DNA of 64,000 nucleotides from Candidatus Aenigmatarchaeota archaeon. Its GTDB lineage: Archaea; Aenigmatarchaeota; Aenigmatarchaeia; CG10238-14; SCSR01. Made by a program: the position numbers and the translations under genes. Shown piece by piece: positions 820-35,351 of this stretch. Under the pieces are notes generated by a model. It did not search any database. It worked only from the letters and a program-made list of their open reading frames with translations, and had not been told where the DNA came from. The stretch spans positions 204,010-268,009 of the forward strand of contig JACPJU010000001.1 in assembly GCA_016187385.1 (NCBI GenBank). Reading direction: 5' to 3'. Each line of letters opens with the position of its first letter. Position 1 is the stretch's first letter.

Positions 820-1386
820 TTAAGGTGTGATTCTCTGTATCGTGTAGTAGGTCACGTCGTTCTCTCTGTCGCAAACAGCCCAGACCATTGTAGCTCTTAT
901 GTTGTGCGCAAGCCTGACAGCCCTTGACATCTCAGGCAGGGAAAATGCGGATTCCTCGGCAACTCCGTGGACAACGAATTTTGTATGTTCGTGGGCTGCT
1001 TTGGGACCTCTCTTGAGCTTGACTCCTCTTTCGTATACTCTAAAATGGCAACCGAATTTATATCCTGTCTTGACCAGATAACCCCTTTCCCTCAGATCGC
1101 GGTAGACCGTATATTGGGTATGGAATTCATTTACTCTTTCACTTCCGATTTTCATCAAATCCTCAAAATCGAGCTTTTTCTTCTTCCCGCCATCCTTGGT
1201 TGTAATCTTCATCTTTCCCTTTTCCACCATGTAGGCGGCTTCTACCAAATCCATTTCAACCCTTTTTGGGTCTTCTTCTGGCAAAGGCTTCCCGTAGCCG
1301 GATTCGTCATAAAGATTAACGCTGTCGCTGTCCCAGATCACTACGCGCTCTTCGATGAGCTCTCCGTCCCAGATTTTCTCTGTCAT
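820..1386 (-). CDS. endA: tRNA-splicing endonuclease EndA
   Basis: 188 aa. The motif YRDLRERGYLVKTGYKFGCHFRVYE and a C-terminal catalytic H/K region are typical of archaeal EndA. Confidence 0.85.
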   Translation of the reverse strand: MTEKIWDGELIEERVVIWDSDSVNLYDESGYGKPLPEEDPKRVEMDLVEAAYMVEKGKMKITTKDGGKKKKLDFEDLMKIGSERVNEFHTQYTVYRDLRERGYLVKTGYKFGCHFRVYERGVKLKRGPKAAHEHTKFVVHGVAEESAFSLPEMSRAVRLAHNIRATMVWAVCDRENDVTYYTIQRITP

Positions 1387-1440: not shown

Positions 1441-2205
1441 ATGAAAATTGTTTCGTGGAATATTGCTGGCGGTCATACTTTTAAAGGTAGGGTTGAAGAT
1501 GCGTCTTCTTACAATCGAGAAGATTTGAGTTATTTCATTGGACAAATTAAAGATGTAGAATCGGATGTCATTTCACTCCAAGAAGCTCACACATCAGTAA
1601 ACAGAAACAATGACTCTCAGGCAAAAACTATAGCCGAAGCTTTAGGTTATGATTTTGTTGTTAATCACCCTTATTCTGACAGATCCCACATTAAAAGTGA
1701 CCAACGCTTATCTTTGTCTATCATTAGCAAATTACCGATAGAAAATTCGTATTTCCATTTGTTACCCAATCCAAGCCTTAGAATTACACGACCCGATGGT
1801 GATGTTTGGGTGTCCTTAGATGTTGGGTTTTTAGTTACTACTGTTGGCTATAATGGGAATAGAATTAATGTAGCCAATTGTCATATGGTACCATATCATT
1901 ATTTTAACAGGGATTTTTTGGAATTCAACGATATTAGAGACGATACTTCCGACTTTTTAATTAGGTTATCGAAGAAGCCTACTTTAGTAGCCGGAGATTT
2001 CAATTATAATGATTTGAAGAGATTATTGCCTCGTATATTCGAAAATGGAAGTTATAGAGAATCTTTTGAAGGTGTAGAAACTGCTCCTGGAAGAGGTCAA
2101 CAAGACCATGTTTTATTCTCAAACCAATGGGATATTAGAAAATATGAGATTCGTGTGGGTGAAGCCGATCACTATCTTTGTGTTTCAGAAGTTGAATTAA
2201 AGTAA
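1441..2205 (+). CDS. Endonuclease/exonuclease/phosphatase (EEP) family protein
   Basis: MKIVSWNIAGG...ISLQEAH N-terminal motifs of the EEP fold; 254 aa. Confidence 0.65.
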   Translation: MKIVSWNIAGGHTFKGRVEDASSYNREDLSYFIGQIKDVESDVISLQEAHTSVNRNNDSQAKTIAEALGYDFVVNHPYSDRSHIKSDQRLSLSIISKLPIENSYFHLLPNPSLRITRPDGDVWVSLDVGFLVTTVGYNGNRINVANCHMVPYHYFNRDFLEFNDIRDDTSDFLIRLSKKPTLVAGDFNYNDLKRLLPRIFENGSYRESFEGVETAPGRGQQDHVLFSNQWDIRKYEIRVGEADHYLCVSEVELK

Positions 2206-2217
2206 ATTGAAAATAAA

Positions 2218-2304
2218 TGGGACAGGGGTGATTTGAACACCCGACTCATCGAGCTTCAGTCGATTGCTCTCTTACCTCATTTGTCCAGGCTGAGCTACTG
2301 TCCC
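2218..2304 (-). tRNA. tRNA-Phe (anticodon GAA) with ~10-12 nt insertion in D-loop (probable non-canonical intron)
   Basis: Reverse-complement reads GGGACAG-TA-GCTCAGCCTGG[ACAAATGAGGTA]AGAGC-A-ATCGA-CTGAAGC-TCGAT-GAGTC-GGGTG-TTCAAAT-CACCC-CTGTCCC-A. Acceptor 7/7 bp, T arm perfect, anticodon loop CUGAAGC. Confidence 0.6.
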
Positions 2305-7712: not shown

Positions 7713-8366
7713 ATGTTAAAAGAAGTTTCCAGTAGATTGAAAGAATATAATATTTTCCATAAAATTGAAAATGGATTCTTAGTAACTAGGAAGACAAGAG
7801 TAAAAATACCCCCCATTTCATCTAAAGTAAGTTATTTGACAGGTGTATTAACTGGAGATGGTAATCTCACGATGGTAAAAAGAATGAAAGGGGGTTTTCA
7901 TTACACTGTTAAAATAACGTCAAATTCAACAGACTATTTAAACTATCTGAATACTAGATTTAGAGAATTGTTTTCAATCAAAGGCGAAATTGGAAAGGAT
8001 AACAGAAAGATGAACACATTTTTTCTGATATTCAGAAATGTTTGCATTTTTTGGTATTTTGTAACCGTTGGTCTATGCATTGGAAGAAAAATAAATCCTT
8101 CAATACCACATAAAATTAGAACAAACAGAAAATTTTTAATTACTTACCTAAGTGGATTAGTGGATACAGATGGTCATATTAACCGTAATAGAATACAGCT
8201 AAAACAGAAAAGCAAAAGTTTTTTGGAAGAGATTAAGCAAGCACTCAAGCTATTTAAATTATCGCCTACAGAGGTTAAAGTAAATTACACCAAGTCAATG
8301 CCCTATTATTATATAAGATTTGATAATAGATTATTTTGCTATAAAGTAGCCACAGTAGCTCAGTAG
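7713..8366 (+). CDS. LAGLIDADG homing endonuclease (two-motif, free-standing)
   Basis: Two LAGLIDADG-type motifs: LTGVLTGDGNL and YLSGLVDTDGHI, about 100 aa apart. The 3' end (KVATVAQ*) reads through the first 18 nt of the downstream tRNA. Confidence 0.8.
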   Translation: MLKEVSSRLKEYNIFHKIENGFLVTRKTRVKIPPISSKVSYLTGVLTGDGNLTMVKRMKGGFHYTVKITSNSTDYLNYLNTRFRELFSIKGEIGKDNRKMNTFFLIFRNVCIFWYFVTVGLCIGRKINPSIPHKIRTNRKFLITYLSGLVDTDGHINRNRIQLKQKSKSFLEEIKQALKLFKLSPTEVKVNYTKSMPYYYIRFDNRLFCYKVATVAQ

Positions 8367-8445
8367 GTAGAGCACCCGAAACAGTTGTGAACTGTTGGTG
8401 AACCTTGTAAGCGGAAGGTCGTGGGTTCAATTCCCACCTGTGGCT
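8349..8445 (+). tRNA. tRNA; best anticodon hairpin AACAG-UUGUGAA-CUGUU gives GUG (His). About 24 nt of extra sequence implies intron(s) at non-canonical positions
   Basis: Acceptor GCCACAG/CTGTGGC 7/7, D arm GCTC-AGTAGGTA-GAGC, T arm GTGGG-TTCAATT-CCCAC. Total 97 nt versus about 73 expected. The extra CCCGA lies before the anticodon stem. A 19-nt ACCTT-GTAAGCGG-AAGGT hairpin lies in the variable region. Confidence 0.5.
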
Positions 8446-8455
8446 TTGATTTTGT

Positions 8456-34397: not shown

Positions 34398-35249
34398 ATG
34401 AGACCTTTGGCTAGGATTCTCCAAGGCAAGATGACAGAGGAACAGTTGGAACTTGTGCCGAGAAGTTATGATGTTGTCGGCTCAAAGGAAAAATCCGTGG
34501 CGATAATAGAGGTATCAGAGGAACTAGACAAGAAGAAAAAGGTAATAGCGAAAGCTTTGATGAAACTTAACCGGAATGTGAAATCTGTTCTGAATAAAAC
34601 CTCAGGAAGAAAAGGGGCTTACAGATTGAGTGATATGGAATTGGTAGGCGGAAACAAAGATACAGAAGTTCTCCACAAGGAATATGGATATTCATTGAAG
34701 TTGAATCCAAGAAAAGTTTATTTTTCGCCGAGGGAGATGACTGAAAGAGAGAGGATTGCATCCCAAGTAAAACCAAATGAAACTGTTGTTGTGTTTTTTT
34801 CTGGAGTCTCTCCATATGCAGTTGCAATAGCGAAAAAACAGCCGTCCATCAATAAAATTTATTCGATTGAAATCAATCCAGACGCTCACAAATATGCGGA
34901 AGAAAATGTAAGAATTAACAAACTGTCGCACAAGATTGTTCTGATAAATGACGATGTAAGAAAATTCTGCGAAAGTACTGACATTAAATTTGACAGGATT
35001 GTAATGCCGATTGCAATTGGTGGTGAAGATTATCTGGACTTTGCATTTAAGATTGTTAAGAACAATGGAATGATTCACTTTTACTCGACGGGAAATGTTA
35101 ATGACATGTTTTCAAAAGCTGAAGAACTTATTAAAGAAATCGCAAAGAAAAATAAAAGGAAGATTAAAATAGAAAAGAGAGTAAAGGTACTCCCATTCGG
35201 AGTTAAGAGTTACAAGATTTGCATTGATATTAAAGCAGGGGTCGCCTAG
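34398..35249 (+). CDS. Trm5/Taw2-like class I SAM methyltransferase (tRNA m1G37 family)
   Basis: Met-10+-like layout with VVVFFSGVSPYAV...IEINPDAHKYAEENV; the 3' end overlaps the first 16 nt of the downstream tRNA. Confidence 0.6.
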   Translation: MRPLARILQGKMTEEQLELVPRSYDVVGSKEKSVAIIEVSEELDKKKKVIAKALMKLNRNVKSVLNKTSGRKGAYRLSDMELVGGNKDTEVLHKEYGYSLKLNPRKVYFSPREMTERERIASQVKPNETVVVFFSGVSPYAVAIAKKQPSINKIYSIEINPDAHKYAEENVRINKLSHKIVLINDDVRKFCESTDIKFDRIVMPIAIGGEDYLDFAFKIVKNNGMIHFYSTGNVNDMFSKAEELIKEIAKKNKRKIKIEKRVKVLPFGVKSYKICIDIKAGVA

Positions 35250-35329
35250 TCTGGTCAATTAAACAGAAAATGGCGTCAGCTTCAGGGGCTGATGGCTTAG
35301 TGCCTTCGAGAGTTCAAATCTCTCCCCCT
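35234..35329 (+). tRNA. tRNA-Leu (CAG), class II, with ~12-nt insertion in D-loop (probable non-canonical intron)
   Basis: GCAGGGG-TC-GCC-TAGTCTGGTCAA[TTAAACAGAAAA]T-GGC-G-TCAGC-TTCAGGG-GCTGA-TGGCTTAGTGCCTTC-GAGAG-TTCAAAT-CTCTC-CCCCTGC-A. Acceptor 7/7 and a long variable arm. Confidence 0.65.
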
Positions 35330-35351
35330 GCATAAGTTTAAAATCTAAAAA

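Follow-up and report, generated by a model that had tools for sequence, protein, structure and literature searches.

What is a transfer RNA (tRNA) gene with perfect stems doing with a D-loop of 22 nucleotides (nt), when its orthologues make do with 9? The question is raised by the tRNA-Phe(GAA) gene found on the minus strand at positions 2218-2304 of a 64,000-nt stretch of DNA from a tiny uncultured member of the DPANN, Candidatus Aenigmatarchaeota archaeon (GenBank assembly GCA_016187385.1, contig JACPJU010000001.1, positions 204,010 to 268,009 of the forward strand; G+C ~40%), referred to below as the window. Our analysis suggests, with a probability of about 0.9, that 13 of these nucleotides form a protein-spliced archaeal intron of the bulge-helix-bulge (BHB) type at position 19/20, predicted to be processed by a tRNA-splicing endonuclease of the EndA type. 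This reading is supported because, once the insert is excised, the D-loop is exactly the 9-nt one of intron-less orthologues, and because the 3' part of the insert is complementary to the exon 4-mer lying 2 nt upstream of the 5' junction. It draws further support from the persistence of the same intron, with pair-preserving changes, in two sister genomes, as well as from other relatives that are devoid of the Phe 19/20 intron and have BHB introns at other positions of this syntenic gene. Such a D-loop intron is of a known archaeal kind and is ordinary for the group; as to the host phylum, Aenigmarchaeota, a literature search yielded no description of its tRNA introns.

Boundaries and precursor fold of the probable tRNA-Phe intron

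The 87-nt gene was read directly from the sequence. Its unspliced product runs GGGACAG UA GCUC [AGCCUGG ACAAAUGAGGUAA GA] GAGC A AUCGA CUGAAGC UCGAU GAGUC GGGUG UUCAAAU CACCC CUGUCCC A. It thus comprises, in DNA letters, an acceptor stem (GGGACAG/CTGTCCC), U8A9, a D-stem (GCTC/GAGC), an anticodon arm (ATCGA-CTGAAGC-TCGAT, anticodon GAA), a variable region (GAGTC), a T-arm (GGGTG-TTCAAAT-CACCC) and discriminator A. All stems are perfect and an oligo-T tract is present 3' of the gene, the sole anomaly being the enlarged D-loop. The initial annotation had rightly located the gene and its D-loop insertion and described the remainder, including the anticodon loop CUGAAGC, as canonical; its estimate of ~12 nt for the insertion gives way to a removable block of 13 nt.

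When this block, ACAAATGAGGTAA (2272-2284, minus strand), was excised, ARAGORN recognised a canonical 74-nt tRNA-Phe with D-loop AGCCUGGGA / AGCCTGGGA, in which AGCCTGG|GA remains. The 5' exon GGGACAGTAGCTCAGCCTGG (2285-2304, minus strand) ends with G19, a junction set by the orthologue D-loop AGCCYGGGA, and the 3' exon (2218-2271, minus strand, coordinates checked) begins with G20 A21 followed by GAGC of the D-stem. Since the boundary is fixed by the 9-nt D-loops of syntenic tRNA-Phe orthologues, it is independent of the analyst's choice. Only one deletion, i.e. a single splice pair, converts the window sequence into D-loop AGCCTGGGA, and it does so with 4/4 pairing in the BHB register. The 12-nt block ACAAATGAGGTA was also considered as the intron and was rejected: it leaves a 10-nt D-loop (AGCCTGGAGA) that does not match the orthologues and provides no in-register helix.

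Neither this gene nor the other D-loop-interrupted gene of the window, tRNA-Leu(CAG) (see below), was reported in unspliced form by ARAGORN or by Rfam at its gathering threshold. At a permissive threshold, Rfam returned a partial match of 22.4 bits for tRNA-Phe, aligning its 3' two-thirds only, and no match for tRNA-Leu. ARAGORN recognised both genes once their inserts were excised.

Folding of the precursor revealed a central helix of 4 base pairs (bp) between the exon strand GCCT (H5, G15-U17a, 2287-2290, minus strand) and the intron strand AGGT (H3, 2274-2277, minus strand), the latter followed by the bulge AA|G that contains the 3' splice site. This GCCU/AGGU helix, which includes one G.U pair, appeared unprompted together with the D-stem, within which it is stacked, in both the minimum free energy and the centroid folds (-31.1 kcal/mol, z = -2.9). 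Exon GCCU ends 2 nt before the 5' junction and intron AGGU 2 nt before the 3' junction; both junctions being 2 nt 3' of a 4-bp helix corresponds to the BHB register (2/2). The 3' splice site AA|G occupies a bulge flanked on one side by the central helix and on the other by an A14.A21 mismatch and the 4-bp D-stem. This bulge has 4 unpaired nt on its 3' side versus 1 on its 5' side and is bulge-like rather than of the strict 3-nt form. The 5' splice site GG|A is part of a 9-nt hairpin loop. The strict hBHBh' motif demands a 3-nt bulge at the 5' site and, closing it, an inner helix h' with 2 bp or more, and is not displayed by the Phe intron. Since the 9-nt loop can be closed by at most one C-G pair (C-AAAU-G), the motif is of the relaxed hBH/BHL-like class. 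The BHB motif for which the initial annotation recommended a search is thus present in relaxed form.

Motifs of the relaxed class were reported to be cut only by broad-specificity endonucleases (PMC5829648; PMC3241643); the relaxed motif and its D-loop location would therefore require an EndA of that type. In the proposed mechanism, exon G15-U17a pairs with intron AGGU to build the 4-bp BHB-type central helix stacked on the D-stem. EndA, encoded 831 nt away, would then cut both sites, leaving 2',3'-cyclic phosphate and 5'-OH ends as in the known pathway. By the same analogy, an RtcB-type ligase would join the exons into the canonical 74-nt tRNA-Phe with D-loop AGCCUGGGA.

The 13-nt intron is built as 1 nt + C-NNNN-G + a 4-nt helix strand + 2 nt. 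The same mini-intron build, its last 2 nt being usually AA, recurs in unrelated lineages and at different tRNA positions, such as ACGAAAGGGCTAA at 18/19 in tRNA-Phe of Nitrososphaeria (L009, L015, L040, L045) and ACTAAAGCTCTAA at 26/27 in the Aenigmarchaeota locus L051. In several Thaumarchaeota its tetraloop is GAAA.

Comparative evidence and intron turnover

Orthologues of the tRNA-Phe gene were recognised in related Aenigmarchaeota by the gene order glycosyltransferase (GT2) / tRNA-Phe / endA / S17e. At four such loci (L048-L051) the D-loops were 9 nt long (AGCCCGGGA, AACCCGGGA and AGTCCGGGA). A metagenome scan for the same acceptor stem returned 16 loci, 14 of which had an uninterrupted D-loop, reading AGCCYGGGA in 13 and AGCCTGGTA in L052. 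One of the 14, L060, has no intron and is nearly identical to the spliced window tRNA-Phe. Homologues with no D-loop intron and the architecture of the spliced product are L048-L051, L053-L056, L059, L060, L063, L066 and L067.

The closest relatives, GCA_964373665 (L072/L073) and GCA_964645905 (L074), whose EndA proteins are 85% and 84% identical to that of the window, retain a 13-nt intron, ACAAATGGGGTAT, at the same 19/20 site. It differs from the window intron by an A->G change in H3 (U-A to U.G) and an A->U change in the bulge, and helix pairing is kept. The anticodon and T stems of these tRNA-Phe genes differ from those of the window by compensatory substitutions.

The distribution of such interruptions was examined in one genome per GTDB species. 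A scan for tRNA-Phe genes with at least 7 extra D-loop bases disclosed 43 loci, all with archaeal titles (Woesearchaeota/Nanoarchaeia, Micrarchaeota, Iainarchaeum, Nitrososphaeria/Thaumarchaeota, Bathyarchaeota and others). The initial statement that introns of this sort are characteristic of a few archaeal lineages only was too narrow. Site 19/20 itself is shared with L005 (archaeon GW2011_AR20), L021, L025 and L032, whose longer introns form a proper inner hairpin.

An unconstrained search for any 4-bp helix in BHB geometry was of little use, with dozens of matches per tRNA and 32% of shuffled D-regions solvable. Because such a scan is too permissive, a register test was adopted instead, in which junctions were fixed solely by a mature loop matching AG[ACT]C[CT]GGGA. 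Applied to 38 distinct D-loop-interrupted archaeal tRNA-Phe sequences, it gave 4/4 pairing in the BHB register for 33. When the intron strand was slid from -3 to +3, 0, 2, 0, 0, 0 and 0 of the 38 were paired 4/4. The insertions occurred at four D-loop sites (15/16, 18/19, 19/20 and 20/21), and at each the intron 4-mer tracked the upstream exon 4-mer (GAGC, GGCU, RGGY and CAGG/CAGU, respectively). Helix-strand variants GGGT and GGGC, observed in other genomes at the H3 site, also preserved pairing. The initial annotation had viewed both D-loop insertions of the window as introns at a non-canonical site, and the register, the orthologue D-loops and the sister genomes agree with it.

Inspection of the syntenic tRNA-Phe gene in six Aenigmarchaeota genomes uncovered 11 introns at seven positions (9/10, 19/20, 22/23, 26/27, 39/40, 44/45 and 59/60), with one or two introns per genome. 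The window gene has the 19/20 intron; L072 and L074 combine 9/10 with 19/20, L048 has 22/23 and 44/45, L049/L050 have 9/10 and 39/40, and L051 has 26/27 and 59/60. All 11 displayed 4/4 helix pairing in the 2/2 register, and each doubly spliced product was recognised by ARAGORN as a 74-nt tRNA-Phe.

Several features of the surroundings were recorded. Genes with a 9/10 intron have a second copy of the 5' acceptor strand GGGACAG, 4-6 nt ahead of the tRNA start (GGGACAG-N4-6-GGGACAGUA...), at ~3840-3852 in L049/L050, ~2333 in L072 and 2335-2352 in L074; the window gene has no such duplication. In most relatives tRNA-Phe and endA share a strand, the tRNA gene preceding endA by ~40-140 nt, and may there be co-transcribed. 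In the window lineage only, a gene of the endonuclease/exonuclease/phosphatase family (1441-2205, plus strand) stands between the two on the opposite strand, and in L048 the intervening gene is of the LAGLIDADG type. On three occasions an open reading frame (ORF) of the LAGLIDADG type directly adjoins or overlaps a tRNA gene with introns: before tRNA-Thr in the window (7713-8366, plus strand), after tRNA-Phe in L048 (3205-3975) and before tRNA-Phe in L074 (1424-2362). The window and L048 proteins share only 22% identity (E = 2e-7).

Archaeal BHB introns, as summarised in PMC4090602, share with the window intron a 4-bp exon-intron helix and cuts placed 2 nt 3' of that helix on both sides. They may be moved to any tRNA position, with several per gene, and their excision restores the cloverleaf. 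The non-canonical positions listed there are 20/21, 22/23, 25/26, 30/31, 45/46 and 59/60; the present intron differs by its position, 19/20 being absent from that list, by its Aenigmarchaeota host and by its size. At 13 nt (1 bulge nt, 6-nt loop, 4-nt helix strand, 2 bulge nt), it is at the short end.

D-loop introns, like that of the window tRNA-Phe, are documented in A. pernix and M. kandleri. In vitro, broad-specificity EndA alone sufficed to cleave the intron of A. pernix tRNA-Thr2, at a lower rate than an intron of the anticodon loop (PMC3241643), and removal of the M. kandleri tRNA-Glu intron at 20b/21 was demonstrated in vivo by RNA-seq (PMC5829648). The A. pernix intron was, however, described as a canonical BHB, whereas the window Phe intron is devoid of h'. 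The enzymes differ too, those of A. pernix and M. kandleri being (alpha-beta)2 heterotetramers, with a CSL loop in the former and no specific loop in the latter, in contrast to the single alpha-type subunit of the window with its L3-type loop and no canonical Lys. In the Nitrososphaeria intron, the 13-nt D-loop sequence ACGAAAGGGCTAA has the same build (N + C-NNNN-G + 4-nt helix strand + AA), yet it is located one nucleotide earlier, at 18/19, with helix AGCC/GGCU, and the EndA of this group was reported to be (alpha-beta)2 (PMC4090602).

The neighbouring endonuclease and alternative explanations

The endA gene (820-1386, minus strand), whose product is 100% identical to an NCBI protein named tRNA-intron lyase of Candidatus Aenigmarchaeota archaeon, starts 831 nt downstream of the 3' end of tRNA-Phe, in line with the ~830 nt given initially. 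According to Pfam and PDB alignments it codes for an alpha-type tRNA-splicing endonuclease of 188 residues, with an N-terminal PF02778 domain (2.8e-15) and a catalytic PF01974 domain (3.7e-27). Its best PDB matches (5x89, 1a79 and 4fz2) place it closest to the M. kandleri alpha unit, the M. jannaschii alpha4 enzyme and the ARMAN-2 alpha unit. The catalytic residues Tyr118 and His134 are present and strongly conserved, and where M. jannaschii has its tetramerisation loop region, the alignment shows an acidic L10-like loop (DRENDVTYY). The heterotetramer-type enzyme suggested in the initial annotation found no support: the product appears to be one alpha-type subunit bearing an L3-type loop, and the 64-kb window yielded no partner for it.

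Between Tyr118 and His134 lies the loop GVKLKRGPKAA, near-invariant among the 120 closest homologues. It exceeds its counterparts in M. jannaschii and M. kandleri by 6-8 residues and is aligned with residues 240-247 of ARMAN-2. This second loop of ARMAN-2 is shared with N. equitans NEQ205 (K93, K94, K96, R97) (PMC3488258) and was named L3 by Kaneta et al. (PMC5829648). L3-bearing EndAs of the alpha4 type in DPANN archaea were reported to correlate with extensive disruption of tRNA genes (Kaneta et al. 2018, PMC5829648), an association with which the near-invariance of the loop in the 120 homologues fits. Like these enzymes, the window EndA has basic residues inserted between its catalytic Tyr and His; the two are separated by 15 residues, as in N. 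equitans (Y86-H102), versus 9 in M. jannaschii. By this basic loop adjoining the active site, it fits the broad-specificity class, to which its function is predicted to belong.

The window EndA departs from other L3-loop enzymes of DPANN at the canonical Lys, which is Ala, while NEQ205 keeps Lys133. The context is AHNIRAT in the window protein versus AHSVRKK, the NEQ counterpart being K133. At least 90% of the 120 closest homologues likewise have Ala at this site, and related proteins under the names Aenigmarchaeota, Nanohaloarchaea and Diapherotrites have Ala, Ser or Thr. A literature search on Lys-less EndA retrieved nothing specific. It is conceivable, although we propose this only tentatively, that Aenigmarchaeota, with some Nanohaloarchaea and Diapherotrites, splice intron-laden tRNAs with a single-subunit EndA devoid of the catalytic Lys, whose role would have moved to the L3 loop KLKRGPK beside the catalytic His, and that this rewired active site, of relaxed specificity, is linked with unusually fast intron turnover.

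Several points weigh against splicing of the tRNA-Phe insert by this enzyme. At the RNA level, the inner helix h' is essentially missing, and an enzyme of strict specificity would leave the 5' site uncut; the A14.A21 mismatch stands between central helix and D-stem; and the junctions that orthologues imply for the tRNA-Leu insert give 3 of 4 pairs plus a G.A mismatch in the 2/2 register. At the protein level, the Tyr-His-Lys triad is incomplete, with Ala165 aligning in three PDB alignments with M. jannaschii K156, M. kandleri K334 and ARMAN-2 K282, and substitution K282A abolishes the activity of ARMAN-2 EndA (PMC3488258). No RtcB was found among the 26 window ORFs scanned with Pfam.

These considerations bear on three other explanations. 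The incomplete triad suits the idea that the insert is removed, but not by the window EndA alone. The Lys-less protein would then be a structural or partner subunit, catalysis being left to a further EndA-like protein, or to some other nuclease, with its gene elsewhere. Replacement of the Lys by Ala in most of the nearest homologues speaks for this idea, and in known (alpha-beta)2 enzymes one subunit is indeed non-catalytic (PMC2761253). Yet the strong conservation of Tyr118 and His134 is unlike that of beta subunits, and the L10-like acidic loop is present. In addition, searches with phmmer and hmmsearch detected no second EndA-like ORF in the window, and no partner was recognisable among the relatives of the nearest Lys-bearing EndA. 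Of the nearest EndAs with both Lys and L3, the minority that carry a source label are assigned to Hadesarchaea, Nanoarchaeota and Woesearchaeota, none being labelled Aenigmarchaeota. We consider this explanation unlikely, although it is the most plausible of the three.

Less probable is the retention of the 13 nt in a mature tRNA-Phe with a truly expanded, 22-nt D-loop holding a small internal hairpin. The stable local helix that the insert makes with D-loop nucleotides would fit it, as would an EndA lacking the canonical catalytic Lys. In tRNA architecture, however, G18G19 contact the T-loop, and the helix would tie up G15-U17a and pull G18G19 away from these contacts. Moreover, syntenic orthologues and 14 of the 16 genes with the same acceptor stem have a 9-nt D-loop, and an expansion gives no reason why the BHB register should be obeyed in 33 of 38 genes at four sites. 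The least probable explanation, by a small step, is a decaying pseudogene with a functional tRNA-Phe elsewhere in the genome: inspection covered 64 kb of a 786-kb contig, and standard finders rejected the gene. Against such decay stand the perfect stems and the oligo-T tract after the gene, the arrangement GT2 / tRNA-Phe / endA kept in all six genomes compared, and stems that evolve by compensatory changes while the intron pairing is retained. Splicing of a BHB-type intron from a functional tRNA-Phe precursor is the reading that we retain.

Other tRNA genes of the window and implications

A scan for acceptor stems and T-arms found four tRNA genes in the window (Phe, Thr, Trp and Leu), all of them interrupted. 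Default ARAGORN and Rfam at its gathering threshold together flagged one of the four, to which ARAGORN assigned a wrong identity.

The tRNA-Leu(CAG) gene is 98 nt long and located at 35235-35332 (plus strand), its orthologues being L068-L071. The initial annotation had noticed its D-loop insertion, but placed the gene at 35234-35329 and described the insert as equal in size and equivalent in position to that of tRNA-Phe. This holds in substance, the exact values being 12 versus 13 nt and a site 1-2 nt further 3'; the Leu insert follows C20a (~20a/20b) and the Phe insert G19. The putative intron AATTAAACAGAA occupies 35257-35268 (plus strand), and the slid registers 35258-35269 and 35259-35270 yield the same mature RNA. 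Three of the orthologues have no intron, L068 and L069 reading TAGYCTGGTCAAT and L070 the 12-nt TAGCCTGGCAAT; the fourth, L071, shares the insertion. Judging from the intron-less orthologues, mature tRNA-Leu should keep GGUCAAU, and an intron of 12 nt rather than 14 nt is therefore favoured. The 14-nt candidate (35256-35269) offers a perfect helix, UCUG/CAGA, but deletes C20a-A20b, which are conserved in intron-less orthologues, and leaves a D-loop two bases shorter than that of any orthologue; it was judged less likely. A gene for a Trm5/TYW2-like S-adenosylmethionine-dependent methyltransferase (34398-35249, plus strand) overlaps the first 15 nt of tRNA-Leu. The order Trm5-like gene, tRNA-Leu is kept in 4/4 relatives, with an M50 protease gene further downstream; L070 and L071 have one more gene between tRNA-Leu and the protease gene.

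The tRNA-Thr(UGU) gene (8349-8445, plus strand) contains a 24-nt intron at 30/31 (8379-8402) with a strict hBHBh' motif, composed of helix CACC/GGUG, bulges CG|A and AA|C and inner hairpin AACAG/CUGUU. ARAGORN called a tRNA-His(GUG) at 8348-8446, which was rejected: its supposed anticodon arm is the hairpin of the Thr intron, AACAG-UUGUGAA-CUGUU.

The tRNA-Trp(CCA) gene (9338-9446, plus strand) escaped both default ARAGORN and Rfam and was recovered by the acceptor/T-arm scan and the intron option of ARAGORN, which places a single 36-nt intron at the canonical position 37/38 (9376-9411). Two-step or nested splicing was considered for this gene and rejected, as no scheme gave a clean BHB. By eye, the intron displays a D'/C'-like arrangement (CUGA, 7 nt, UGAUGG), and 5'-UGGAG-3' upstream of CUGA is pairable with C32-A36, C34 facing the fifth base upstream of the box. 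This arrangement resembles the known intron-guided Cm34 of archaeal tRNA-Trp.

The value of these results resides mainly in the annotation of hidden tRNA genes, in the turnover series at a single locus and in the Lys-less EndA. As regards annotation, tRNAscan-SE 2.0 includes dedicated BHB models for Crenarchaeota/Euryarchaeota and a separate one for Thaumarchaeota (PMC8450103). Since default ARAGORN and Rfam flagged so few of the window tRNA genes, and under a wrong name, the completeness and decoding capacity of metagenome-assembled genomes from Aenigmarchaeota and other DPANN will be underestimated unless BHB-aware tools are used. The syntenic tRNA-Phe series, with its seven positions in six genomes, provides material for the study of archaeal tRNA intron gain and loss.

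The most unexpected item is the Lys-less EndA family rather than the intron, and it could surprise the specialist. To our knowledge, the catalytic lysine is essential in every characterised EndA. If the Lys-less protein is the sole endonuclease of these archaea, the catalytic model of the EndA family would need amendment.

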